From Ginglymostoma cirratum (taxonomy: Eukaryota): a DNA stretch of 64,000 nucleotides. The translations under genes and the position numbers were made by a program. The stretch is from the NCBI GenBank assembly GCA_024137785.1, contig JAHRHZ010000061.1, positions 1,762,066 to 1,826,065 on the forward strand. The letters are read 5' to 3'. Below, piece by piece: positions 29,877-62,870 of this stretch; position 1 is the stretch's first letter, and every line of letters begins with the position of its first letter. Under the pieces are notes generated by a model that worked only from the letters and a program-made list of their open reading frames with translations, made no database searches and was not told the origin of the DNA.

Positions 29877-30034
29877 AGAGATAGGGACTGCAGATGCTGG
29901 AGAATCTGAGATAACAAGGTGTAGAGCTGGATGAACACAGCAGGCCAAGCAGCATCATAGGAGCAGGAAAGCTTGACGTTTAGGTCTAGGCCCGAAACAT
30001 CAAGCTTTCCTGCTCCTATGATGATGCTTGGCCT
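29877..30034. mobile_element. Fold-back mini-Penelope insert
   Basis: Head-to-head pLTR arms joined within the hammerhead region; degenerate TSD taattgtgagtcc / tacttgtgagtct. Confidence 0.85.
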
Positions 30035-30606
30035 ACTTGTGAGTCTAACCAATTTAGCACATCGGCAAGTCTGAGTGGCAATGCACATAGTTGCATGATT
30101 CAATGCTAGCTTAAATAATTCTGACTAATGTCCAAGAGCAGCTGTTCTTATTTATTCATGAGATGTGGCATTTGATGCCCATCCCTAGTTGCCCTTGAGA
30201 AGGTGGTGATGAGCTGCTGCCTTGAATTGCTGTAGTCCATTTGATGTAGCTAGATAGACTCTTAATGTTGCTTGTTCATGGAGAGACTGACTGGACCAGG
30301 GGGTGGAATAGTATTGGGACGAATATTGAATTAAGAAACGAGTTAACATGAAGGTATAGCTTTAGAAAAGAAGACACCAGTAAAGAGCAGTTCAAGTACA
30401 AGGTTCCATTTAATCATTTCTTCAGTTTGCATCCTGATGGACTGGAAAAGCTCAAGCACCAGGTTAATTCACCACCTTGTTACAGGTGAAACTGCTTCAC
30501 AGCGGGAGAAGGGCATCGAATACAAAAGAGAAAAATTAATTGTAATATTTTCACTTTGCATATTAATCTCAAGCCACTAAATTATTTTTTCTATAATGAT
30601 TGGCAG

Positions 30607-31519: not shown

Positions 31520-31850
31520 CATAGAATCTCTACAGTGTGGAAGCAAGCCATTTGGCCCATCGAATCCACACCGACCCTCTGAAGAGAATCCCATCCAGAA
31601 CCACCCCGAACCTTATCCCTGAATTTCTCATGGCTAATTGACTTAGCCTGCACACTATGGGCAATTTAGCATGGCCAATCCACCTGCACATCTTTGGACT
31701 GTGGGAGGAAACTGGAGCACCTGGAAGAAACCCACACAGACAGGGGAAATGTGCAAACTCCACACAGACAGTCACCTTAGGTATAGAATTGAACCCAGAT
31801 CCCTGGCATTGTGAGGCAGCAGTGCTAACCACAGAGCCATTCTGTTGCCA
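31520..31850 (-). mobile_element. HE1-like V-SINE
   Basis: tRNA head gtggttagcactgctgcctcaca, V-domain tgtgtggagtttgcacatt...ttcctcccacagtccaaag, CR1-like tail. Confidence 0.88.
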
Positions 31851-38234: not shown

Positions 38235-38352
38235 GATAACAAGCATGGGGCTGGATGAACACAGCAGGTCAAGCTTGACCTGCTGTGTTCATCCAGCCCC
38301 ATGCTTGTTATCTCGGATTCTCCAGCATCTGCAGTACCTTTTATCTCTATCA
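38235..38352. mobile_element. Fold-back mini-Penelope insert containing a perfect 78-bp palindrome
   Basis: Palindrome 38235..38312; 15-bp TSD tagatgatatgcctt at 38220..38234 and 38353..38367. Confidence 0.92.
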
Positions 38353-38629: not shown

Positions 38630-41600
38630 GGCCATTGCCTGCAGCTTCTTTGAAATATCAGAGAGGGAATGGATGACCACTAGGCAGAGGAAAGCGGTGA
38701 GACAGACAGACAGGAAAACTGCAGAGGGCATCTTAGTGATGATTTTTTTCTGTGTTGGAAAATGATGACAGTGAAGATTCCAATGGGAAACACAGCAAAG
38801 GCAAAGTTCACAGCTGGGTGGCCCAGCCTCACAAGGAGGAACCAGAGTCCAAGGGAAAGACTCAATAGGTGTGCAGATAGGTGTTTTTGCAGCTATGGAC
38901 ATAACCTCCAGCAAATGGTGTTCCTCCCTGAGGCCTGGGTCAGGGATGTAACTGGCTGCAGGGGATCCTGAAGAGGAGTGTTAATTTAGCGTCATGGTAA
39001 ATGTTCATGTTGATGATATATGTAGAATGAGGGATGATATCTTGCATCAAGAGTTTAGCAAGCTTGGCAGTAGATTAAAAAGCAGGATGTCTCTGGATTA
39101 CCATGATGCTATTTGTTTGTGAGTACAGAAATAAGGGAATAGAGGTGATGAACTCCTGGTTCAAGAGTTGGTGCAGGAGGGAGGGATTTTGAGTCTTGGA
39201 CCACTACAGCCATTTCTGGAGAAGGTGGGAACTATACAAGCAGGTGGTCTGCACCTGAACCAAAATGGGACCAATACCCTTGCAGGTAGGTTTGCTAGTA
39301 TTGTTTGCAGTTTAAACTGGTTCGGCATTGTGAGGAGGCACAACATGATATAGTAAAGGAACCAGGGCAGAGAGAATTAAGACATTTTGCAATTCAAGAG
39401 AGTAAGGCGAAGCTAGATTGAATCTAATGCTGGCAGTTTTATAGGTAAGAAAGATGAGTTAAGGGTGTGAATTGAAGTGTGAATTGTGATATTTTTACCA
39501 TAGTAGAGATGAGATTCAGAAAAGGGCAGGAATGACAATTCGACGTTATAGAATGTCGGATCTTCAGGCAAGGGTATAAGAGAGGAAGTGGTGTTGCATT
39601 ATTAAGTCATTTACTGCCATGAGGAGTGATGATATCTTTAAGGGGAGCTATGTGGGTAGAGCTTATGGGGAAAACAAAGGGCTGCAGTTGTGTTGATTGC
39701 AGTGTATTAGAGGCCTCCAAACAGGTAATGGGCAATAGAGGAGCAACTACGATGACGATTCACTGAGGTGTGTAATAAGAATAATAGTAATTCTATTCAG
39801 AAATTTCAACTTCCTGACCATTAACTGATATAGCTTAGGGTTTAGAAGGGCTGAATTTCTTGAAATGTATTCAGGATACTTTTTATGCCAACATACAGAA
39901 GGTTCAACAAGAGACAGGACAATGCTGGACCTAATTCTGGGGCATGAAGCCAGCAGGCAGTTGAGGTGGCAGTGGAGGAGCATTTTAGTGATCATGACCA
40001 CAAACGGTATGATTTAAATTTGTTAAGGAAAAGGAAAGGAATGGCCTGCAAAAAAAGGGGTTTGGATTGAGCAGTGGTGGATTTTATTAAAATAAGATGA
40101 TCAAGCCAAATTAGACTCGGACCAGTTCCTTCTGAGAAAATTTTAGAACAATCAGGGTGTTCAAAAAGGAATTTGAGAGACTACAGGCCCAAAATGTTTC
40201 CTTTAGGGTGACATGTGAGAGCAACAAGCCTAGGGAACGACTGATGTTTAGGAATATTCAGGACTGGAAATATAGGAAAAGAGAGATCAGTGCTGGGACC
40301 TCTGCTGTTTGTGATCTACATAAATGATTTGGAGGAAAATGTAACTGGCCTAATTAGTAAGTTTGTGGATGATACAAAGATTGGTGGAGTTGCGGATAAT
40401 GAGGAGGACTGTCAGAGGATACAGCAGGCTATCGATTAGTTGGAGGCATGGGCAGAAAAATGGAGTTTAATCCAGATAAATGTGAGGTGATGCATTTTGG
40501 AAGTTCATGTGGAAATGATACAGTGAATGGCAGAACCCTTAAAAGTGCTGATATGCAGAGGGAACTGGCTATGCAGGTGCACCGATCACTGAAGGTGACA
40601 GCGCAGGTAGATAAGGTAGTTAAAAAGGCTTACGGCGTACTTGCCTTCATTGGGAGGGGCATTGAGCGTGAGGATAGACAAGTTATGCTGTAACTTTATA
40701 GAAATTTAGTAAGGCCACGCTTGGAGTATTAAGTACAGTTCTGGTCACCATGTTACCAGAAAGATGTGGATGCTTTGGAGAGGGTACAAAAAATGGTTAC
40801 CAGGATGTTACCTGGTATGGGGGATTTTAGCAATGAAGAAAGTTTGGCTAGACTGGGTTTGTTTTCACTGGAACGCAGAAGGTTGAGGGGCGACCTAATA
40901 GGAGCTTATAAGATTGTGAATGGCAGGGATAGAGCGGAAAGTATGAGGCTTTTTCTTAGGGTGGAGGGGTCAATTACTAGGACACACAGGTTTAAGGTGT
41001 GGTGGGGGCTGGAGTTTAAAAGAGATGTGCGACGCAAGTTTTTCACACGATGGATGGTGAGTGCCTGGAACTCATTGCCAGAGGAGGTGGTGGAAGCAGA
41101 CATAATAGCAGCATTCAAGAAGCATTGGACAAATACGTGAAAAGGAAGGGAATAGATGAAGTGAGCGAAGACAGTTTTAGTATGGAAAGGCAAAATGTTG
41201 CAGCACAGGCTTGGAGGGATGAAGGGCCTGTTCCTGTGCTATATTGTTCTTTGCACCTGCTAAAAGCTTAAAGAACAACGGGCATAAATCAATGGAGGTC
41301 CAAGTGGAATATACAAAGGTCAGGGCGGAATTAAAAAAGCAATTTGGAGAGCAAAGAGGGGACATTCTTTAAGATGAAACCGGTAGGTAAGATTGGGGAG
41401 AATCCCAAGATATTCTGTAAGTATATTAAGGAGAAAGTGGATAACCAGAGAAAGAATGGGGCCTTTGGGGATCAAGGGAGCCTAGCTGACCAGTCCATCT
41501 ATACTGTCTTACAATCTAAGGCTGTCCTGTCCATTTACCATCACACCAATTTCCGTACCATCTGAATTTGCAGATGTGTTGCATTTTGGCAAGACAAACC

Positions 41601-43670
41601 AGGGCAGGAATTATACAGTTAATGGTAGGGCCCTGGGGAGAGTTGCTGAACAGAGAGGGGTGCAGGTGCATAGTTTCTTCAAAGTGGAGTTGCAGGCAGA
41701 CAGGTGGTGAAAAAGGCATTTGGCACATTTGCCTTCATTGCACATTGAATTGAGTATAGGAGTTGGGTGTCATGTGGCAGCTGTACAGGACATTTGTTAG
41801 GCCACTTTTGGAATACTGCGTGCAATTCTACTCTCTCTGCTGTAGGAAGGATGTTAAACTTGAAAGGGTTCGGAAAAGATTTACAATGATGTTGACAGAA
41901 TAGAGGGTTTGAGCTATAGGGAGAGGCTGAATAGGCTGGAGCATCGGAGGCTGAAGTATCATCTTATAGACGTTTGTATAATCATGAGGGGTGTGGATAG
42001 GGTGGAAAACCAAGGCCTTTTTCCTAGGGTAGGGGAGTCCAAAACTAGTGGGCATAGGTTTAAGGTGAAAGGGGAAACATTTAAAAGGGACCTGAGGGGA
42101 AACTTTTTCACGCAGAGGGTGGTGGTGCATGTATGGAATGAGCTGCCAGAGGAAGTGGTGGAGGTGGGCAGAATTACAATATTTGAAAGTCATCTGTTTG
42201 CATGAATAAGAAGGGTTTAGAGGGATATTGGCCAAATGCTGGCAATGGGACTAGATCAGTTCAGGTTATTAGGTTGCTACGAATGAGTTGGACTAAAGGG
42301 ACTGTTTATGTGCTGTATAACTCTATGATTCTATTAATTTCCCAGACTCCTTTTATAATGGAGGATAAAGATGATGACTTCAACATATATTTTGCCTTTG
42401 TCTTCACTAGAGAAGACAGAGTGCACTCTAGGAATAGCTATAAATTGGCAATTGAAAGGGTAGGAAAAACTTAAAATTATAATCACTAGGCCAATAGTAT
42501 TGAGGAAATTGTTGGATTTCACCCTAGGCCATGAAATGAAATAACTAGTGAGATAGTTGATTCATTGGCTTTAAGTTTTCAAAATTGATTTGATTTGGGG
42601 AGGGTTCCTTTAGTTTGGAAAATATCTAATTTAACTCCTTCATTCAAAAAACAGAGGCAGAAAGCAGGAAACAACAAACCAGACAGCTTAAGATCTAACC
42701 TAGGGAAAATAATAGAAGCTATTATTAAAGATATTATTATGTGGCACTAGGATAAGTTCAAAGTAATCAGGCAGAGTCAACATGGTTTTATCAAAGGAAA
42801 GTTGTTCAACCAACTTATTGGTTGTGAAGAGGACGTTAAAGCCTATAAAGGGATATGGATGAAATAAGTCAATGGGCAAAGATCTAGGAAATGGAGTATA
42901 ATGCAAAGAAATGTGAAAATGTCCATTTTAACAGAATTTTAAAAAAGCATGTGATCAATGTGGGGAGAGGTTGTAGAGCTTTGAGGTGCCGAGAAATCTG
43001 GGTGACCTAGAGCATGAATTATGGGAAGTTAGTTTGCAGGTACAGCAAATAAACAAGAAAACTAATAGATTGATATGTTTTGTTGTGAAGAGAATTAAAT
43101 GCAAGAGTAATGAGGTTATGCTTCAATTATACAGGGCATTGGTGAGACCACATCTGGAGTATCGTGTAGAATACTGAACATTGTATTCACTGTTAATGTA
43201 TTAGAAGTAGTTCAAAGAAGGTTTACTAGACCAGTATCTGGAATGAGCAAATTGAAGAGAGGCTGTACAGGATAGTCCTGTATCCTACAGAGTTAAGAAG
43301 AATCAGAGGTGACTTAATTGATATAAGATTCTGAGGGCATTTGACCAGATGGATACTGAAAGGATATGGAAGGGTCTAAAACTAAAGTCATAATTTAAAA
43401 ATAAGGGGCTTCCATTTAAAACAGATGAAGAAAAGAAATTACGCTGAGGGTTTTCAGTCTGAAGAAGTCCCTTCCTCAAAAGATGCAGATGCAAAATCTA
43501 TTAATATTTTTAAGGCCGAGGTAGCTAGATTCTTGATTACCAAGGAGATGAAAGATTAGGGGTGTACGTAGGAATGTAGAGTTGAGGTTAAAATCAGATC
43601 AGCTATGATCTTATTGAAGGGTGGAGCAGATTAAAGGGGCCAAGTGGCCTACTCTTGTTCCTTGCTCTTG
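38630..43670 (+). mobile_element. Cluster of nested CR1 LINE fragments (old ORF1 esterase/EN piece; 3' pieces ~40284..41250, ~41565..42335, ~42340..43670)
   Basis: GLHLNQNGTNTLAGRF; MEFNPDKCEVMHFG; LFSLERRRLRGDL; LVRPHLEY; three separate CR1 tails. Confidence 0.88.
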
Positions 43671-43905
43671 TGTGAACCTATTGGGTGAAGGAGGTAACAT
43701 TGTGGTTTTGAAAGAATGGAGGCATAATTGCTGTTGTCAAATGGGGCCAGGATTTCATTATCTTCATACATTGATTATAGATTTGTTCATTATGATCGTA
43801 TCCAAAACGTACTCTCCAGTTGTGCCAACTGGGAGGGAAAGTCGTGATGCAAATCTAAGACTTTGTATAAATTAAAATCTGCAACAAGTTAAAAATTTGA
43901 ATATC

Positions 43906-43911
43906 TTTATT
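43906..43911 (-). terminator. Candidate poly(A) signal of the HHLA2-like gene
   Basis: First minus-strand AATAAA found downstream of the stop at 44921, followed by a T/GT-rich tract. Confidence 0.55.
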
Positions 43912-44010
43912 TTCATCTAATTCCATGTATTTCATGCCAGGATTTTCTTCTATTTTGATATACTTTTTAAAATGTATTACACACAACAAATCCCAACCTG
44001 CCAATTTGTA

Positions 44011-44351
44011 GAGAACCATCTTGTCGGTGTTGAGGTCATTGTGTTATGTAATTATGTAATATTTATCTGGTCATATAATTAAATATTTAAAATTAGTAAT
44101 AATAATATCAATCTTCTATTCTGTGTGTTGATTGCCCAATTTTTGAAGAATATTTTGATATTCACCCTAAAAGTGCCTTTGACAAAATTGTTACATCAAT
44201 TGTTATCCTAGTTTTACCCTCACAATTCAATTTGAAATAATTCTCCAGAATTATCTTTTCTATAATATTTTACGTACACCTCATTAAGATCATCTGTCAG
44301 TCAATTGTGTTTGAGACAATGTTTCTCCAGTCTTTCCTGTTGACTCTGACA
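44011..44351. repeat. Left arm of a ~340 bp local inverted duplication
   Basis: Reverse complement of 45898..46240 with long exact blocks, e.g. gaagaatattttgatattcaccctaaaagtgcctttgacaaaattgttacatcaattg. Confidence 0.95.
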
Positions 44352-44405
44352 TATAACAAGTAGGTTTAGCAGGATAAGTCCATTAATGACGAGGGAGGGG
44401 CAAGG

Positions 44406-44750
44406 TGCACAGCACAGTGGCTCGGTGGTTAGCACTGCTGCCTCACAACACCAGGGACCCAGGTTCAATTCTATCCTCAGGTGACTGTCTGTGTGGAGTT
44501 TGCACATTCTCCCCATGTCTGTGTGGGTTTCCTCTAGGTGCTCCAGTTTCCTCCCACAGTCCAGAGATGTGCAGGCTAGGTGGATTGGCCATGCTAAATT
44601 GCCCGTAGTGTTCAAGAATGTGTAGATTAAGTGGGTTAATGGGAGGATGGGTCTGGGTGGGATGCTCTCAGAGTCAGTGTGGACTTGTTGGGCCAAAGGG
44701 CCTGTTTCCACACCATAGGGATTCTATAATGATGAATTCTATGATTCCAT
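44406..44750 (+). mobile_element. HE1-like V-SINE (antisense within the predicted HHLA2 3' UTR)
   Basis: A/B-box head, V-domain and (attctatg)n tail. Confidence 0.9.
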
Positions 44751-44920
44751 GATGATGAATGACCGACATTTATGAATCTGCCAAACTATGGTTTTGTTTG
44801 TAAAATGCTGACCTTCATTATGCTGACAAAATTAAGCCCATGATTTTAAGCACAAAGAGCGGTAATCACTCAGTTCAAGGCAGGTGCAGCAGCAGATATT
44901 TCCATAGGATGTAGATTTCT

Positions 44921-45057
44921 TCATCTTTCCTCTTCCTTTTCAGTTGTTTTCTTCCTCAACAGAATAGTCCCTATTGAGACGATTGAAAACACAGCAAATG
45001 CGGCTATTAATGCAACACGTTGGCGATGACTTGGTTGTTCATTTTGCAGTCCAGAGT
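44921..45057 (-). CDS. HHLA2: HHLA2-like transmembrane and cytoplasmic terminal exon: (D)SGLQNEQPSHRQRVALIAAFAVFSIVSIGTILLRKKTTEKEEER*
   Basis: Minus-strand acceptor tttcag, phase 1 matching the IgV donor at 53797; 20-aa hydrophobic run followed by RKK. Confidence 0.82.
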
Positions 45058-45299
45058 CTGAAATTTGATCAAAATAAACTTTAACAAACTTCATTTAATT
45101 CACACATAAATTTAACACTAAACAAATAGAGAATTTAAATAAAAATTCAACTGTAAATGTTGGAAAATGGAAAATAAGTATACTTATTTTAAATTATACT
45201 TAATTATAAGTATACTCATCCAAAACAAAACAATTGGATGAGGTGTTTATTGCATTGATGATATGGAAGTAAGGAAGGACTAATTTACCCCATCATAAA

Positions 45300-45690
45300 T
45301 ATTGTTGTGTAGTGGAAATGTCACTGGTGTAATAATCCACACCCTAAGCTTATGCTCTTGGATCATGGGTTCAAATCTTGTTGTGACAGCTGATGGAATT
45401 TTAATTAAGCTAATGAAAACAAAATTTGGATTGAAAGCTAACGACAGTGAAACTAAGCTATTATTGATTGTTGTTAAATACCCATCTGGTTTGTTAATAC
45501 CCTTTAGGAAAGGAAATCTGTTGACCTTATTTGGTTTGGCCTATGTGTGACTCCTGGCCCACAATGCTGTGGTTGACTTTTAATTACTCTCTGATAGCCT
45601 AACAGCCCCTTCTGTTCAAGGGCAACTAGGGATGGGCAACAAATACTGGTCTTTGTAAATGACACCGATTTTCCAATCAACAGATAAGTC
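45300..45690 (+). mobile_element. SINE family B
   Basis: Head gtgtagtggaaatgtcactgg...gggttcaaatc; tail caagggcaactagggatgggcaac. Confidence 0.75.
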
Positions 45691-45897
45691 AATAAAGTTG
45701 GTGAAATGTTAGACTAAATGTTAGAATAGTATTCAAAGGAAGTTACACTTGTGTATAGTACATCCTTGAGTACTGTGATCAGCTCTGTCCTGTGAGGAAC
45801 ATTCAAACACTGAAACAATGCAGACGAGAGTTTATGAGGATGCTTTCAAGGCTGCTGATACCATCTCCTTGATAGCAATCCAGATTGCAGTGTTTGC

Positions 45898-46240
45898 TGT
45901 CAGAGTCAACAGGAAAGACTGGAGAAACATTATCTCAAACACAAGTGACTGACAGATGATCTTAATGAGGTATACATAAAATATTATAGAAAAGATAATT
46001 CTGGAGAATTATTTCAAATTGAATTGTGAGGGTAAAACTAGGATAACAATTGATGTAACAATTTTGTCAAAGGCACTTTTAGGGTGAATATCAAAATATT
46101 CTTCAAAAATTGGGCAATGAATACATAGAATAGAAAATTGATATTATTATCATTAATTTTAAATGTTTAATTATATGATATTTATCTGATTACATAATTA
46201 CATAACACATGGACCTCAACATCAACAAGATGTTGTTTCT
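45898..46240. repeat. Right arm of the inverted duplication (ancient CR1-like 3' remnant plus flank)
   Basis: Reverse complement of 44011..44351; homology resumes briefly at ~46420..46430 after an insert. Confidence 0.95.
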
Positions 46241-46242
46241 AA

Positions 46243-46400
46243 TGTGGAGCTGGAGGATCCAGCAGGCCAGGCAGTGTCAGAGGTGCAAGAAAGTTGATGT
46301 TTCGGGTCGGGATGCTCCTCTGATGTTGCCTGTCCTGCTGTGATCCTCCACCTCCACACTGTTACCTCTGACTCCATCATCGGCAGTTCTTACTATCTCT
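46243..46400. mobile_element. Fold-back mini-Penelope insert
   Basis: Inverted pLTR arms; TSD-like tgtttctaat / tgtttccaat. Confidence 0.8.
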
Positions 46401-47089
46401 GGTGTTTCCAATAGTTCTTTACAACTTGGCAGCATGTAATAAAATGAATGAAAATATAGGGCAGGAATTTCAATTGTCAAAAATATCCCCATTAGATTAT
46501 CTCGGCTTATCTGTATGTTTCTCATGGTTTATTGAACACACTACAATACTGTAAAAAGAGTATTCATCACTGCACTGTGATGGTATATGTGTCCACCAGA
46601 CAGAGCTGATCAGAAGGTTATGGTTTTCATGATTTTAAAAACTCTTGGTGAATGTTATATTTGAGTCAAAAATATAAGAATACTGGTTACATGTGAATGT
46701 GCCAATATTATTAAACTCCTTAACCTTTATTTTAACAAAGGGGCCGAAAAGTTTTTAAAATCGGTAGAGCTATTTTTGACCAAGTTTTTGGTTTTTGCCT
46801 TGCTATCTTCTTTCTCAATTTTCTGCTCTTTCACTTTTTTGTTTTATAATGTTCCTGTGAATCATCTTGGAATATTTTACTAAGTTAAAAACAGTTTTTA
46901 AAGAAGCTCATCTTGATGTTTTTTGTAGCCTGTATGACAAATGTAATTTCACCTCTATATATTTCATTTAAAAATATGATATTTCTTTACAGCCCAGAAT
47001 GAGGATTAAATATTTGCAAACTTAAATATGGACAACCTTGCTATGAGATGATGTTTAAGACTAAATTTAAAGTATGACGATCAAATCGA

Positions 47090-48545
47090 AGCTCTGCGGT
47101 ACTGTCACATTGATCGTCAATGATAGTAGACAATTAAAGCATTAACAAGAAGAGAAGACTCCACATGTATCAACGATAGGGGAGCCCCGCAACATCAGTG
47201 CTAAAGAAAAGGCTTGCATCCATCCTCAGCCAGAAGTGCCAAGTGGATGAATCATCTCGCCTTCTCCTCGGGTTCCTGGCATCACAGATGTCAGTCCAGC
47301 CAATTTGACAATTTTTCATGTGACATCAAGAAAAGGCTGAAGGCACTGGGTACTGCAAAAATTATGGCCCTAACAACATTCCACTAATAGCACTGACAGC
47401 TTGTGCTCCAGATTTGCAGTACCAATGACCAAACTCTTCCAGAACAGACACAACACTGGCATCTACTTTACACCATGGAAAATTTCCCGGGTGTATCCTG
47501 TCCACAAATATTAGGACAGATCCAACTCAGCCAATTGTCATCCGATCAGTTTACTCTCAATCATCAGCAAAGTGAAGGAAGGGGTCATTGACAGTGCTAT
47601 CAAGCAGCACTTGGCCAGCAACAAGCTGCCTACTCACGCTCAGTTTGGGTTCCAGCAGGCCCACTGAATATGTGATCCGAGTACAGCTTTGGGCCAAACG
47701 TGGACTAAAGAGCTGAATTCCAGAGGTGAAGTGAGAGTGGCTGCCCTTGGCATCAAGACAAGCATTTGTCTCAGTGTGATATGAAGGAGCCCTAGCAAAA
47801 CAAGAATCAAAGGAAATCGAGGGGATAAATTGTCCACTAGTTGGAATCAATCCAAATCAAAGGAAGATAGTGGTTAGAAATCAACCATCTCAGTCCCAGA
47901 ACATCATTGCAGGAGTTACTCATAGCTGTGTCTTAGGCCTAGCCAGATCCTTCCTCAATAATGTTCGCTTTAACATAGGGTCAGAAGTTGAGATGTCCAG
48001 CACCATTACCAATTCCACAGATACTCAAGCAGTCTGTATCTATATGCAGAAAGACCTGGACAATATTATGGGTTTTGGCTGATAAGTTGCAAGAAACATT
48101 CACGCCATACAAGTGCCACTTTTAGCTGGATGGATGAACTGGCCCAACCATGTAAATACTTGGCTGCAAAAGCAGATCAGAGGATATAAATTCTGTGGCA
48201 ATTAACTCACCTACTGTCTCCCCAGTGCCTGCCTACCATCTACAAGACAATACTGTATACTTGCTTGAACGCTCTAACAGCTCTAACAACGCTCTAAAAG
48301 CTCAATGCTATCTAGGACAAAGCAGCCTGCTTGAGTGGCACCTCATTCACCACATCAAGCACCCCGTCCATCAATGACACTGAGCAGTAAGCATGTAAAC
48401 CATCTACAAACCACCTGTTGGGCTCTGTCAACAGCACCTTCCAAATCTGCATCCTCAAACACTGAGAACGTGGTCAGTAGATGCATGGGAACACCATCAC
48501 CTGCAGCTTCCCCTTCAAACAATTCATCCATTCTAACTTGGAGCT
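47090..48545 (+). mobile_element. Degraded CR1/L2-like LINE RT fragment
   Basis: RT remnants (AQFGFQQAH, VAALGIKTSI, AGVTHSCVLG). Same family as 23095..23945. Confidence 0.75.
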
Positions 48546-48950
48546 ATGAGACAGAGTACAAGAAAGAAATGGACAGCTGAGTGGCATGGTGTAAAGACAA
48601 AAATCTCTCCCTCAATATCAGCAAAACGAGAAACTAGTCATTAATTCCACGGAGCAGAGTGGGGTCATGCCCCTGTCTATATCATTGGTGCCGAGGTGGA
48701 GGTAGATGAGAGTTTCAAGTTCTTAGGAGTAAATATCATCATCAATGATATATCTTGGTCCATCTATGTTGATGCTATAGTCAAGAAAGCACACCAACAC
48801 CTCGACTTCCTCACAAGGCTAAGGAAATTTAGTATGTCCACAATAACTCTTACCAATTTTTAATAAATTCGCCATAGAGAGCATCATATGTGGATAGATC
48901 ACAGCTTTGTAATGCTACTGCGCTGCCCAAGAACATTAGAAATTATAGGG
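48545..48950 (+). mobile_element. Rex1/Babar LINE fragment
   Basis: NLSLNISKT, FKFLGVNI, KKAHQHLDFLTRLRKF. Confidence 0.85.
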
Positions 48951-49329
48951 AACTGGGTTAGTCAGTGATGTCCACATCCCATTAGTGAATAAAAAGAAAA
49001 CTCCCTCACACATTCAATCCCATTCTCTCACCCTGGTTGTAATTTGCCAGACAGTTTACCTGCGTTTGCCTACACCAGGCCTGAACACCGCCTCTCAGTC
49101 AGTGCTACCCTGTCATCAGCACCCGCATCTTGCCATTGTTCAATAGGGCAATATCGCATGCAGGAAAGCAATCGATCAATTCCAAAGATGATATTTTGTT
49201 TGCAAAAGCGAGCAGAAACAAAATGAATAGAGGTTGCAGGTCATTCCCACAATGCAAACCATATGATATTGATGACTAACAACTATTTTACATTCCATGA
49301 TGGTCTACTGCACCCAGCTTTCATTTTCT

Positions 49330-50480
49330 GGAACTGGGTATCAGTCACGCCCTGTCTGTCCCATAGTATCTGATACAGCTCAGCTCTGTCATGCATAAGG
49401 AGAGATTTCTACTCCACAGTCCTTCTCCTCAGAAGATTGCTCCCATACTCTCAGTTTGTTAGCATCCAATTGTACAGAGCACAGCACACCAGGGTGGTGT
49501 GAGACAATCTATCCGGACTATACGGAAGGGCCACCTGTTCACACCAGTCCATGTAGCAGAACCACATCTTCAGTAGCCCCTATCGTCTGCTCCACCATCG
49601 CACTGGTCAAATCATGGGCAACATTGAATTTGTGCTTTTCTTCATTCGAGGGGTCACACAATACTATCAAAAGCTGTGGTGCCAGTGAGTAGCTCTTGTT
49701 CCCTAGTAACCTGCCTTGTAAAACTCCTGGACCCCCAAGTGCAATAGGTCCATGAGAGTGCTCCTGGATGTAGGAGACGTGGCAGCTGCCAGGGTGGTGT
49801 GCACGCCCCTCCAGGAAGTGGTGATAGTGATCACAGATTCACTAGAACATCAATGGAATGTTTCCCCTTCCTGCTGATATATTTCTCAGTGTTGTGATAT
49901 GGTCCTCTTAGTGCCATGTGTGAGCAGTCAATGGCAGTCTGTATCTGGAGGAAGGCAGATGTGTTCTCGAACCCTACTGCCTGGGCTGCAGCACTGACCT
50001 CAGCATTGGGAAACAAAATGAATCAGTGTAACCTTGCCCAGATATTATTAGCCACTGTCCTGATGCATTTGTGGGAACACGACAGAAATTCCACACAGCT
50101 ACCTGTCGCTCCCTACAAGGTTTAATGCTGTTCCCACTTTCACAGTCACAATGAGAGGGTGGCCCTCCATTCCTGCAGCACTTGTCCCACTCCATCATCC
50201 GGCATCATTCCATCACTGTGTCCTGGGACAGAGGGAGCATGTGCTGATACTGTGCCTTGTTCATTCCCAGGAATTGAAATTGAGGGTGAGAAGCTTGGGA
50301 CCTTTTGTTCATGTTCTGCATCTTGAGGGTCCCTGTGACTGTGACATATCCCCTGAGCAGGGTGCCTCTTATCCTCCATGGGGACCTGCTGCTGCTCCTG
50401 GGCTTGTCATTGGCCCTGGATTTGCTGCATCTGCTTTCACCTTCATAGGGAGGTAGCCACATTCCATCGGCACTAGGCAC
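49330..50480 (-). pseudogene. Harbinger/PIF (HARBI1-like DDE) transposase fossil
   Basis: AIDCSHMAL, YISRKGKHSIDV, PGSCHVSYI, LLGNKSYSL, MVEQTIG in the expected order, with frameshifts and catalytic-site substitutions. Confidence 0.85.
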
Positions 50481-53400: not shown

Positions 53401-53796
53401 ACAACACCAAGGACAATGGCAACCTAAAGATCTGAAGAAGAGGATGTTTACTTTGGTCTTCCATCCTTTTTCAGAGGGAACTGGGTTCAAATGCAGCACA
53501 GACTTATCAGCAGACGGGCTTTCCCAATCTGTCTCAAATTCAAAATGCTCAAATTCAAAATGAATTTAGTGAATTCAAAATAAGTTAATAATCTCTACAC
53601 AGCTCCAAGAGGGTTCAACTATGTAGTTCACGACTGTCCATGCTCTGATCAAAATTGTAAAAGCAGCAGCAAGAAATTACTGTTTTTTTAAACCTGGAAC
53701 AAGCATATTACAAAACACAGGTGCATTAGCTGAATCAAATGTATAATATAACATTTCAAGCTTTGATCTGTAACCATAAAATTATTGATAACTTAC

Positions 53797-54108
53797 CTAT
53801 TCTTAGAATGTAGGTGAATACTTGCATTGCATCTTTGGTGCTGATTTCACAGGTATATTCTCCTGATCTATTTGAAGTTACATCATGCAGTACAAGGGAT
53901 GAAAGTTTCTGAGTGTTTGGCATTTCTGATTCAGTGGTTGAACAATTTGTATGTACAGTGCCTTGCTGTTGAACTGATTCACAGATTTTCATTAAAGGAG
54001 AGGTTTCCGTCTTCCTAAACCTCCATGTAATTGTGATATTTTGATCGAAATTGAAGAAATCGTCACAAGTAATTATAATGGTTTTGCTCTCGGTTGTGTT
54101 TAATCTGC
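53797..54108 (-). CDS. HHLA2: HHLA2-like membrane-proximal IgV exon
   Basis: tttttaag/gtaagt boundaries, phase 1-1, 312 nt open. IIITCDDFFNFDQNITITWRF...SLVLHDVTSNRSGEYTCEIST resembles recalled human SCQPVNDYFSPNQDFKVTWSR...DSGEYLCNISS. Confidence 0.85.
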
Positions 54109-56720: not shown

Positions 56721-57014
56721 CTTTCATTTTCCAGGTTGCATTCCATGACTGCTGTGTTGGTTCATTCTTGATATTACATTTGTAGGTCATGTCTGATGTT
56801 TGATTAATCTTCAACATGCTCTTAACATTGAAAAGACCTTGTGGATCAGTAGTCACTTCCAAATTTGCATTTTGACTTAAGTCATTCTCATTAGCATCTT
56901 GCCATACCAATAATGGTTTTGGATAAACACCAAATGCAGAACACGCAATATTGATTACATCAGTTGTGTTAGATAGCATATTTGGGGGATCTAATGTTGC
57001 ACTCTTCCAATGAG
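56721..57014 (-). CDS. HHLA2: HHLA2-like IgC exon (B7 C-set)
   Basis: tttcag/gtaaca boundaries, phase 1-1, 294 nt. CSAFGVYPKPLLVW...YKCNIKNEPTQQSWNATWKMK resembles human CSVLSVYPRPIITW...YECTIENSLLKQTWTGRWTMK. CIP2A synteny supports the call. Confidence 0.88.
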
Positions 57015-59539: not shown

Positions 59540-60915
59540 TATAGGAACATGGGGCTAAGAATGGGCCATTCAATCTGCCAAGACCACTGTACCATTCATT
59601 CACTTTGACACCTTTTACTCACATTATCTCTATAACCCTTTATGTCAATTTCATTTAGAAACCTCCATTCTCTGCTATAAACATACTCAATGATTGAGCT
59701 TCCATAGCCCTCTCAGGTAGAGACTTCAAAAGATTTGCAACCCTCTGTGTAAAGAAAATTCTTCTCATTTCAGTCCCAAGTGGATCCCCCTTATTTTGAA
59801 ATTGTGTACCCTAGGTCAAGACTCCCTAGCTAGGAGAACCATACTACCTGCGTCTATCCTTATGTCTCTTTAAGTGTTTAATTTGTTTCAATGAGATCAC
59901 CTCTCATTCTTCAAAATTCTAAAGAATACAGAGACAACAGTGTAGAGTTGGAGAATCACAGCAGGTCAGGCAACATCAGAAGAGTAGGAAAGTCAACATT
60001 TCAGATCGGGACCCTTCTTCAGAACTGAAACATTGACTTTCCTGCTCCTCTGATGGTGCCTGGCCTGCTGTGTTCCTCCAGCTCTACACTGTGTTGTCTC
60101 TGACCCCAGCATCTGCAGTTCTTGCTATCTTTAAACAATACAGGCCCAGTCTCTCCAATCTCTCTTCATAGGAGAATCCCACTATCCTGGGAACAAGTCT
60201 GGTGAACCTTCAGTACACTCACTCTATATGGTAATATCTTTCCCATGATAATGAGAAAAGAAAGGATGCATAGGCTGGGACTTCTTTCAGAGGAGCATAG
60301 GAGGTTGAGAGCTGACCTTATAGAATTTTATAAAATCATGAGGGGTATAGATGGGGTTAATGGTAGTTGTCTTTTCCCAAGGTTGGAGGATTTTAAAACT
60401 AAGAGGCACATTCATAAGGCGAGAGGAGAGAGATTTAAAATAGACATGAGGGACAAATTTTTTACACAGGAAGGTTCATGTGTGGAATGAATTTCCTGAG
60501 GAAGTGATGGATGTAGGTACAATGACAATGTTTAAAAGACATTTTGATTGGTACATGAATAGGAAATATTTGGAAGGATGTGGGCCAGGAGCAGGCAGGT
60601 GGGACTAGTTTAGTTTGGGATTAAGTTCGGCCATGGACTGGTTGGACAGAAGGGTCTGTTTCTGTGCTGTATGATTCTATGACTTGATGAGAGCAAAGCA
60701 GCAACATGTAACACCAGCACAATCTAACAAAGGTTCCATACAATTGAAGCAAGACTTTGTTACTTCTGTACTCAATCCTTTAGCATTAAAGGCTAATCTA
60801 CCATTTACCTTTTACCAATTGCTTCCTGCACTTCCATGTAAGCCTTCAGAGAATTATTGACAAGGACATCTGGGTTCCTTTGTATTTCTACACTGTTGTA
60901 ATGCTTACCATTTAA
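59540..60915 (-). mobile_element. CR1 3' fragment with nested mini-Penelope (59931..60133) and a + strand CR1 tail (~60250..60690)
   Basis: CR1 tail motifs on both strands; RRLRADLIEFYKIMRGID. Confidence 0.8.
59931..60133. mobile_element. Fold-back mini-Penelope insert with minus-strand hammerhead
   Basis: Minus strand reads agtt-CTGAAGA-A-GGGTC-ccGATCT-GAAA-TGTT; inverted arms; aatacag repeated at the flanks. Confidence 0.82.
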
Positions 60916-60919
60916 GAAA

Positions 60920-62870
60920 CTCTTCCTCTTACAAAAGTAAAAGAAAAGACATAGAACATGGAAAAATAAGCCAAAGGATAAGGAACTTAGATCCCTTAAG
61001 GAACAAAGCTGGGGAAATAATAATGGTGAAACAGGAAATGGCAGAAGAGTTGAATAAATATTTTGGTAGAAGACACAAGTAGCATTCCAAAATTGCTACA
61101 TTATCAAATTCAAAAACTCTCATAAGAAAAAAAATACTATTGAAGTTAAAGGCCAATAAATCCCTGTATCTAATGGTTTGCATATTAGGATATTAAAGGA
61201 AGTAGCTACAGAGATGGTGGATTCACTGATAGTAATCTTTCAAGGAATCTTAGATTATAGAAAACTCATGGAAGATTGGAAAGCTGTTAATGTAACACCC
61301 TTATTCAAAAAGGAAAGGAGACAAAAACAGGAAGCTACAGTCCAGCTAGTTTATCTTATGTGAAAGGGAATATATTAGAATCTATCACAAAGGTTTTATT
61401 AGCAAAGCATTTAGAAACATATAAAATAAATCAAGCAGAGTCAACAGGACTTTGTGACAGGGAGTTCATTCTTGACAACTCTATTAGAATTCTTTGAGAA
61501 GGAAAAAAGCAGAATAGATATTAGGGAGGCAGTAGATACAATATTTTTAGATTCCCAAAAGGCGTTCGATAAGGTACCACACATTAGGCTACTTCATAAG
61601 AAAAGAACCCACGGTGTTGGAGGTAATACATCAGCATGGATAGAGGATCGGATAGCTAATAGAAGACAGAGATTTTGTGATAAGGGGTGGCATTTTCAGG
61701 ATGGCAACCTTTAACTAGTGAAGTACCACAAGGATCATTGCTGGAACCATAATTACTTATAATATGTATTAATGACTTGGAAGAGGAATGTGAATACACC
61801 ATTGGCAAATTTGTGAAAGATACAAAGAACAGGTAGGAAGGCAAGTGGTGAGGATGAATCTACAGAGGGCTATAGACAGATGGTAAGTGGGCGAACCCTT
61901 GGCAGATGGAATATAATATGGGAAAATATCAGGTTATGCGACTTGGCAAGAAAAGTAGAGGAGCTGAATATTATGTCAATAGAAAAAAAGACTGCATAAA
62001 GCTGCAGTTCAGAGGGATTTGGGCACCTTTCTGCATAAATGAGTAAATCTAAGTTGAGCAGATAAAAGCACAGCAGGCCAGGCAGCATCTGGAGGAAAAG
62101 AGAAGTCAACGTTTCCAGTATTACCCATCTTTAGGACTGGATGTGGGGTTAGGGGGGAGCTGCAGATAAAAAGAGGGAGGGGGGCAGAGGGGTAGCGGAA
62201 TGATGGTAATAAGTAGACACCAGTAGTAAGTACAACAGTAGGTTGGTCTGGATTCATCCCTGCCATCAACCCACCACATCGTACCTACTACTGGTGTCCA
62301 CCTATCACCACCAATCCGCTACCCCACTACCCTCTCTCTTTATCTGCAGCTCCCCTTACCCCCACATCCCGTCCTGTAGAAGGGTAAGACCTGAAACATT
62401 GACTTCTCTTTTCTTCCAGGTAATGTCTGGCCTGCTGTGTTCTTCCAGCCTCCTGTTTGTCTACCTTGTATCTGCAGGAGCTTAGAAGAGGAACAGGCAG
62501 CCTGATTAAAATATATAAGATATATAAAATCTTGACAGGGCAGCTGTGGAGACAATGTTTTCTTTCATAGGATAATGTAGAACTAGGAGTCACTATTTAA
62601 AAATAAGCAGCTGCCCGTTTAAAACACAGATTGGGTGAAAGTTTTTCCCTCAGAGGGACATGAGTCTTTGAAACCCAGTTCCTAAAATGATGGTGGAAAC
62701 AGAGACTTTGAATATTCTGAAGACAGAGGGGGATAGATTCTTGGTAAGCTAGGAGTGGAAATATTAACAGGGTAGGAATGTGGATTTGAGTTTACAGTCA
62801 GATCAGCCATGATCTTATTAAATGGCAGAGCAGGTTTGAGGGGCCAAATGGCCTATTCCATGTGTCTGTG
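60920..62870 (+). mobile_element. Degraded CR1 LINE RT, with a fold-back Penelope insert at ~62060..62478
   Basis: EDWKAVNVTPLFKK and FLDSQKAFDKVPH motifs; inverted pLTR arms of about 170 bp. Confidence 0.85.

Follow-up and report, generated by a model that had tools for sequence, protein, structure and literature searches.

An old local inverted duplication around the transmembrane exon of an HHLA2-like gene in Ginglymostoma cirratum, with an inner part likely re-equalised by gene conversion

The stretch of Ginglymostoma cirratum DNA analysed here (the window: 64,000 nucleotides, positions 1,762,066 to 1,826,065 of contig JAHRHZ010000061.1 in assembly GCA_024137785.1) carries on its minus strand an HHLA2-like gene of the B7 family, with exons in the order IgV, IgC and IgV, an intron of 8.7 kb and a terminal exon that encodes a transmembrane (TM) helix. 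This terminal exon is enclosed by the two arms of an inverted repeat, 93% alike, of which the left lies in the predicted 3' untranslated region (UTR) and the right in the last intron (Table 1). We favour, and consider probable, an explanation in which the arms are an old local inverted duplication that two relatives also carry; their inner part was likely re-equalised by arm-to-arm conversion in the lineage of this animal, and the structure as a whole is probably neutral.

A pair of inverted arms of about 340 bp around the TM exon had been described in an earlier note on this DNA, and it is recovered by a repeat search, by blastn and by a search of the animal's own genome. With blastn, 44017-44351 aligns to 46232-45898 over 336 columns at 93.5% identity (E 7e-142), and the repeat search returns the arms as 44071-44358/45891-46178 (95%) and 44017-44060/46189-46232 (91%), with a loop of 1,546 nt between the arms. 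The left arm, used as a query against the whole genome (4.36 Gb in 289 contigs), matches two places, which are these two arms; as common words are skipped, this count is to be read as at least two. A sample of the genome was also drawn, comprising 1,143,464 readable bases of 1,834,000 with the window included, after 18 of 39 blocks that were wholly N had been dropped; 364 kb of it comes from the neighbourhood of this locus, and it is not a random sample. No further copies of the arms are found in this 1.14 Mb, and no look-alike stretch is found among the other genomes of the survey. The idea that the arms are the terminal repeats of a transposon family was considered as well, and is ruled out by the two genome matches.

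Table 1. Features of the inverted repeat and of its host gene (positions are those of the window)
Feature	Positions	Strand	Evidence or remark
Left arm	44008..44351	.	Predicted 3' UTR; likely acceptor (inserted) copy; covered by run X1
Right arm	45898..46242	.	Last intron; likely donor copy, continuous with the CR1 remnant in the loop
Perfect tract, probable conversion tract	44131..44272	.	142 bases; partner 45977-46118; carries 44181, 44184, 44185 and 44243
Outer, unconverted part of left arm	44017..44130	.	18 differences in 114 bases
Outward continuation of arm homology	43989..44007	.	19 bases, 17 of 19 alike; partner about 46412-46430
Abundant-repeat fragment inserted in right arm	46243..46408	+	44 other copies of at least 80 bases in the sample; best 90%, median 81%
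Old CR1 3' remnant	45764..45977	+	nhmmer E 5.5e-8; starts in the loop and ends 80 bases into the right arm
SINE copy in loop, predicted 3' UTR	44410..44727	+	81% to 31521-31847
First IgV exon	about 1 kb past window end	-	Contig sequence beyond the window
IgC exon, B7 type	56721..57014	-	Best PDB match CD276, E 3.9e-22
Second IgV exon, precedes last intron	53797..54108	-	57% to basking-shark homolog, E 1.7e-32
Terminal exon, coding part (stalk, TM helix, short charged tail, stop)	44921..45057	-	Acceptor reading and hydropathy
First canonical AATAAA past stop	43906..43911	-	Motif reading; variant AATACA at 43973-43978

The identity of roughly 90% that had been estimated by eye is right insofar as the arms are alike, but any one figure masks a mosaic, with 98% identity in the inner part and 84% in the outer part. 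Only four of the 22 differences between the arms fall in the inner 221 bases, and the other 18 are in the outer 114 (Fisher p 2.7e-6); when the change point is left free, the observed statistic is equalled in 0 of 1000 permutations. Among the transitions that separate the arms, six preserve a G-U pair in the transcript and six do not (A-C), and all three of the inner ones preserve it. On the outer side, the homology restarts for 19 bases past an element of about 166 bases. Because the homology resumes beyond this element, which is present in the right arm only, the element entered the right arm after the duplication. An additional outward extension of the arms to 43906 gives no excess over shuffles, the score being equalled in 378 of 500.

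The age of the duplication is given by two relatives. Four runs from four studies, among a total of 24 runs, were compared over 43300-44400: X1 from organism A, which is the organism of the window, X10 from organism B, X16 from organism C, and X21. Both X10 and X16 cover the unique flank evenly at a depth of 4-5, and the flank differs from the window at 15 of 239 and 13 of 231 positions in B (6%) and at 37 of 313 in C (12%); on these counts, B is taken as the nearer relative of the window organism. B and C each contribute two contigs over the arm, one that continues into the left flank and another that carries right-arm bases and ends where the arm ends, and the sites 44096 and 44123 tell left from right arm in all three organisms. 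Since both arms are present in B and C, the duplication is old and predates the split of A from these two. The local duplication proposed in the earlier note is borne out, although the note missed that it is older than the three organisms and that the high identity likely comes from conversion; conservation in relatives, which the note had raised, is found for both arms and in neither relative for the perfect tract.

Comparison with these relatives also bears on the origin of the inner identity. At nine listed sites both C contigs differ from the left arm of the window, and at five of them the window's right arm matches C, which marks them as left-arm changes; at the remaining four it does not. 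At 44181, 44184, 44185 and 44243, all inside the perfect tract, one base is found in both arms of A and another in both arms of C and the right arm of B. Because the base common to both A arms at these four sites is absent from both outgroup arms, arm-to-arm gene conversion likely accounts for the shared derived bases, and parallel mutation is an unlikely source. Against its ortholog in C, the left arm shows 38 differences in 374 positions, but against its own paralog only four in 221 (p 5e-5), and four or fewer differences in 221 bases have a p of 3e-8 at the flank rate of C and of 0.003 at that of B. High identity between the arms thus likely stems from gene conversion and not from young age. 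At 44127 both arms of B have G, both arms of C have A and the arms of A are split, which suggests a separate conversion in B at this site.

Neither B nor C shows the 142-base perfect tract, as judged in C from its separate contigs and in B from a left arm that is unalignable over 85 bases. The two C contigs (455 and 467 bases) are unbroken through the arm, and contigs that emerge separate and unbroken from an assembly graph share no 31-mer; the left arm of B is altered within the tract. On the contigs compared, the perfect tract is specific to the lineage of the window organism.

Several smaller observations concern the same bases. By eye, the three clustered changes at 44181-44185, which both arms share, bring a short local quasi-palindrome closer to perfection, the kind of result that a template-switch mutation gives. 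In the UTR arm, several derived changes (44113, 44243, 44273 and 44277) replace T by C on the plus strand, and hence A by G in the transcript; these few genomic changes may reflect a mutation bias linked to transcription. In X10 from B, about 67 unalignable letters seem to replace 85 at 44172-44256 of the left arm, and there seems to be a length difference of 8 bases within 44259-44390.

The earlier note derived the arms from an ancient repeat, and this holds for 45764-45977, a remnant of the long interspersed element (LINE) CR1 that reaches 80 bases into the right arm from its inner edge; the test assigns only these 80 bases of the arm to CR1, and the rest is without assignment and may include flanking DNA, as the note held. 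The profile used was built from 61 CR1 3' ends in the sample, and it finds nothing in the reversed control. The match is interrupted by 40 bases (45858-45897) and restarts at the inner edge of the right arm. No CR1 sequence is found beside the left arm on either side, and the score for an inner-side continuation is 15, against a shuffle mean of 15.6. As the CR1 remnant runs into the right arm and none is found beside the left, the intronic arm likely served as the donor, and the UTR arm would be the copy that was inserted. Detection of CR1 is by profile search only: tblastn gives a best E of 0.67, and when five CR1 copies are aligned pairwise with the right arm at the DNA level, four score no higher than 30 shuffles do. 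The inner junction has 2 bases of microhomology and no poly(A) run, and the outer junction is blurred by age. A 45-base piece at the inner edge of the right arm has local template scores of 22 and 25 within 40000-50000, taken with no shuffle control, and no clear source. Downstream of the gene, 42334-43700 is a degenerate CR1 copy that by eye apparently lacks a large piece from the middle of its reverse transcriptase region, and the short interspersed element (SINE) in the loop belongs to a family that we take to be tRNA-derived.

A known class of events resembles what is seen here. In repair-mediated proximal duplications, donor and acceptor are described as lying within 5 kb of each other (mean 1.2 kb), with lengths of 50-619 bases (Pace, Sen, Batzer and Feschotte 2009; PMC2671141). 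The present arms are similar in being 1.5 kb apart and about 345-365 bases long, with at least one other copy in the genome and no poly(A) tail. However, no empty site is found, given that B and C hold both arms, and the marks at the junctions are weak after so long; in the sample, no repeat matches the sequence on either side of the left arm. Sharks are absent from the genomes named in the methods passage of that paper, and 'gene conversion' occurs 0 times in its main text. By this analogy, the arms would likely belong among the repair-mediated duplications. A break in what is now the 3' UTR would have been repaired with a reversed copy of about 360 bases of the intron, taken from a site 1.5 kb away; both copies were in place before B and C split from A, and the element entered the right copy later. 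After the split from B, between 63 and 142 bases would have been copied from arm to arm without crossover, a step for which the pattern is observed and the mechanism is proposed. A crossover would turn the acceptor, the TM helix and the stop around and thereby take them out of the gene; selection would eliminate such an allele, and orientation would thus be kept.

Inverted repeats whose arms are converted are known from other animals. In Caenorhabditis, inverted repeats are reported to be kept alike across species by conversion (PMC1803023), and for the human Y palindrome P6 conversion is described together with rare inversions (PMC3723533). As in these, the structure here is common to several species, the paralogous arms are more identical than the orthologs, and orientation is kept. 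However, the arms here are short and non-coding with an exon-bearing spacer of 1.5 kb, whereas the others are gene pairs or large arms of a sex chromosome, and homogenisation here looks patchy and lineage-specific and not continuous.

The base rate of such structures in this genome was estimated from the 1.14 Mb sample, in which there are eight other inverted pairs of at least 150 bases and at least 90% identity within 2 kb, which corresponds to about 30,000 genome-wide (13,000-60,000). Six of the eight come from one abundant hairpin-forming family, one is a SINE pair with family-level identity and one is private. Private pairs were defined as those of at least 120 bases and at least 85% identity that are at least 8 points above any distant copy, with one tandem array left out; apart from the arms, two inverted pairs (three with a borderline one) and five direct pairs qualify, all within 2 kb and none at 2-10 kb. 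For three private inverted pairs, the genome-wide estimate is 11,000 (2,400-33,000). A second private inverted pair lies in the window itself (17757-18137/19364-19904), where about 380 bases from inside a CR1 copy are found reversed 1.2 kb upstream; its members are 92-94% alike against 80-86% to other copies, and the donor carries a later insertion. Chance alone is expected to place some exons inside loops of this kind. At 38235-38312, 29939-30037, 59929-60102 and 62069-62439, the window also holds hairpin-shaped copies of a single abundant element, and one of these is a perfect 78-base palindrome.

The gene that holds the arms had been called an HHLA2-like checkpoint ligand, and the V-C-V-TM order and a CIP2A neighbour support this. 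The one homolog returned, among 28 candidates, is a basking-shark protein of 367 residues named VTCN1-like in its source, which matches the three Ig exons in order at 72%, 54% and 57%. Against PDB, the second IgV exon has no match below E 0.001. The terminal exon begins at 45057, and its stop ends at 44921; it encodes the peptide SGLQNEQPSHRQRVALIAAFAVFSIVSIGTILLRKKTTEKEEER, with a best 19-residue Kyte-Doolittle mean of 2.54 for the helix and a cytoplasmic tail of about 10 residues. Its alignment to the C-terminus of the basking-shark homolog is weak, the score being equalled by 28 of 2000 shuffles. The convergent neighbour is CIP2A, with nine CIP2A_N matches on the same contig that reach into the window. 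IFT57 is not found on this contig, as all five of its genome matches are on another one, C13; there it lies near the contig end, near 59.7 Mb, and the human IFT57-HHLA2 adjacency is not seen on the contig of the gene. Human HHLA2 has the same order of IgV, IgC, IgV and TM (PMC10173190) and is placed in one region with KIAA1524, which is CIP2A (PMC8254995). However, the shark gene differs from human HHLA2 (B7-H7) in the placement of IFT57, in the short tail and in the VTCN1-like name of its homolog. Judged from domain order and neighbourhood, HHLA2-like would be a fair label. Read-through of the second IgV donor into the last intron gives 13 more codons and then a stop (53756-53796), so that any transcript ending within this intron would specify a soluble V-C-V protein.

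Placement of one arm in the last intron and of the other in the 3' UTR, upstream of the first AATAAA, is borne out as geometry, with the UTR arm covered by an RNA-like run. Contigs of X1 cover 44132-44400 at a depth of 308.6 and 43951-44095 at a depth of 128.1, with 0 differences from the genome over 414 bases; the right-arm contig has a depth of 7.3, and nothing falls on 43670-43928. X1 is thus RNA-like, which would place the UTR arm in mature transcripts from which the intron is mostly removed. Contigs of this kind drop minor variants and give neither transcript ends nor levels, and X1 argues against majority editing over the 414 bases and against transcripts that stop before the arm; judged from these contigs, the early transcript ends (before 44351) that the note named as a refutation do not seem to apply. 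In X21, which consists of poly(A) raw reads of which about 24 in 100 were read, 680 reads include 0 on 43707-44400. One X1 contig seems to jump back across an 11-base direct microhomology between 43951 and 44150 (predicted bin depth 231.55, observed 231.5), for which a reverse-transcriptase jump, a 200-base tandem allele and a circle are candidates.

These data bear on an alternative that we regard as unlikely, although it is the strongest of the alternatives, in which a duplex in the pre-mRNA slows excision of the last intron or undergoes ADAR editing, output shifts to a soluble ligand made by intronic polyadenylation, and selection maintains this duplex. Predicted pairing of the arms is strong (-487 kcal/mol), the UTR arm is in the RNA-like run with the intron-arm contig at low depth, and both the stop 13 codons past the second IgV donor and the 15 AATAAA/ATTAAA hexamers on the minus strand of the last intron would permit such a product; the hexamers are a count in 8.7 kb of AT-rich sequence with no chance comparison. 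There are also precedents. For intronic inverted Alus, editing and a shift in splicing are reported (PMC2533698), and there, too, two opposite repeat-derived arms in one pre-mRNA are able to pair; however, both Alu copies are intronic, whereas in the shark gene one arm belongs to the 3' UTR, the enclosed exon is the last one, and effects on editing or splicing would be hypothetical. A soluble PD-L1 is described as arising by exaptation of an intronic LINE-2A (PMC6877088), likewise in a B7-family gene with a LINE remnant in the intron before the TM exon, but that case involves an alternative terminal exon and no inverted repeat, and no such transcript is seen here.

Against such a selected duplex, the perfect tract is seen in neither relative, although it should persist under selection. 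The X1 contigs over the UTR argue against majority editing, and there is no overall G-U bias (6 versus 6). The loop has one acceptor, no annotated donor and only two donor-like motifs. The UTR arm is transcribed 706 bases after the acceptor and the stem lies 840 bases from it, and the arms could pair in the pre-mRNA only until the last intron is removed. With no annotated donor inside the loop, exon skipping of the classical loop-out kind would require a further terminal exon, and none is seen. The suggestion that pairing loops out or edits the TM exon and shifts output between membrane and soluble ligand finds no editing or isoform evidence in these contigs. A more specific version appears less probable still: that conversion newly built, in this lineage alone, a near-perfect intron-3' UTR duplex of 220 bases, and that this duplex now slows excision of the last intron or attracts ADAR, with a regulated soluble HHLA2-like decoy as the outcome. 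In that case an accident of DNA repair would have become a switch between membrane and soluble forms at a terminal exon.

It is similarly doubtful that the arms are the scar of an inversion with staggered breaks, or that the loop flips today by crossover between them, both of which had been put forward earlier. A staggered model also predicts that the right arm is continuous with CR1 on its inner side, and the 40-base interruption lies at this edge; the 142-base perfect tract is a plausible substrate for recombination, and P6 shows rare inversions alongside conversion (PMC3723533). However, staggered breaks would flip an exon whose place and orientation match the basking-shark homolog: the exon in the loop is in phase after the second IgV exon and resembles the basking-shark C-terminus, and a single inversion would break the gene. 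This conserved position argues against a scar, which would imply the opposite orientation of the loop in the ancestor. As for present-day flipping, the left contig of C links left-type outer bases, across the arm, to the inner flank that adjoins the left arm in the window, and its orientation is accordingly the same by contig phasing; C is the one relative that is phased, and no inverted allele is seen.

Very improbable, in our view, is that the perfect tract is an artefact of assembly or polishing in which bases of one arm were copied into the other. The comparison uses no raw DNA reads of A, and X1 contigs, which lose minor variants, cannot confirm the inner bases of the right arm; but 22 differences persist, four of them next to the tract, and the X1 right-arm contig ends at 44161 with 30 bases in common with the left-arm contig, as is expected for identical arms. 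Finally, a recent duplication limited to this lineage, which the inner identity of 98% might suggest, is scarcely tenable given that both arms, with 44096 and 44123 diagnostic in all three organisms, are present in B and C and that the outer part is only 84% alike and split by an aged insertion; this holds provided that the contigs of B and C derive from this locus.

The reading of an old duplication with later conversion is therefore preferred, but several points weigh against it. No empty site supports the initial patching step, for which the inner junction offers only its 2 bases of microhomology; nor does simple copying account for the 40-base interruption, which lies precisely at the donor edge. 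All three inner transitions keep G-U pairing, although they are few. Three of the four shared sites lie within 5 bases and may go back to one mutation, which would reduce the evidence to two events. The site list is partial, with 19 letter rows seen over 44015-44370 and 183 rows of the whole stretch outside it, and each relative is represented by one run of contigs at a depth of 3-6. The left arm of B appears unaligned over 44172-44256 by depth arithmetic, so that polarity in B is taken from its right arm alone. Neutrality is probable on the basis of non-conservation and of the base rate.

At the rates of change known for sharks, the arms may be tens of millions of years old. High identity between arms does not date a duplication: inverted arms as short and as close (1.5 kb) as these can be old and yet refreshed in patches. 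If it were true that the lineage-specific duplex alters the ratio of membrane to soluble ligand, a neutral repair process would be tied to immune regulation. A search of the literature, limited in coverage, returned nothing published on this repeat and nothing on a soluble form of HHLA2 in sharks.

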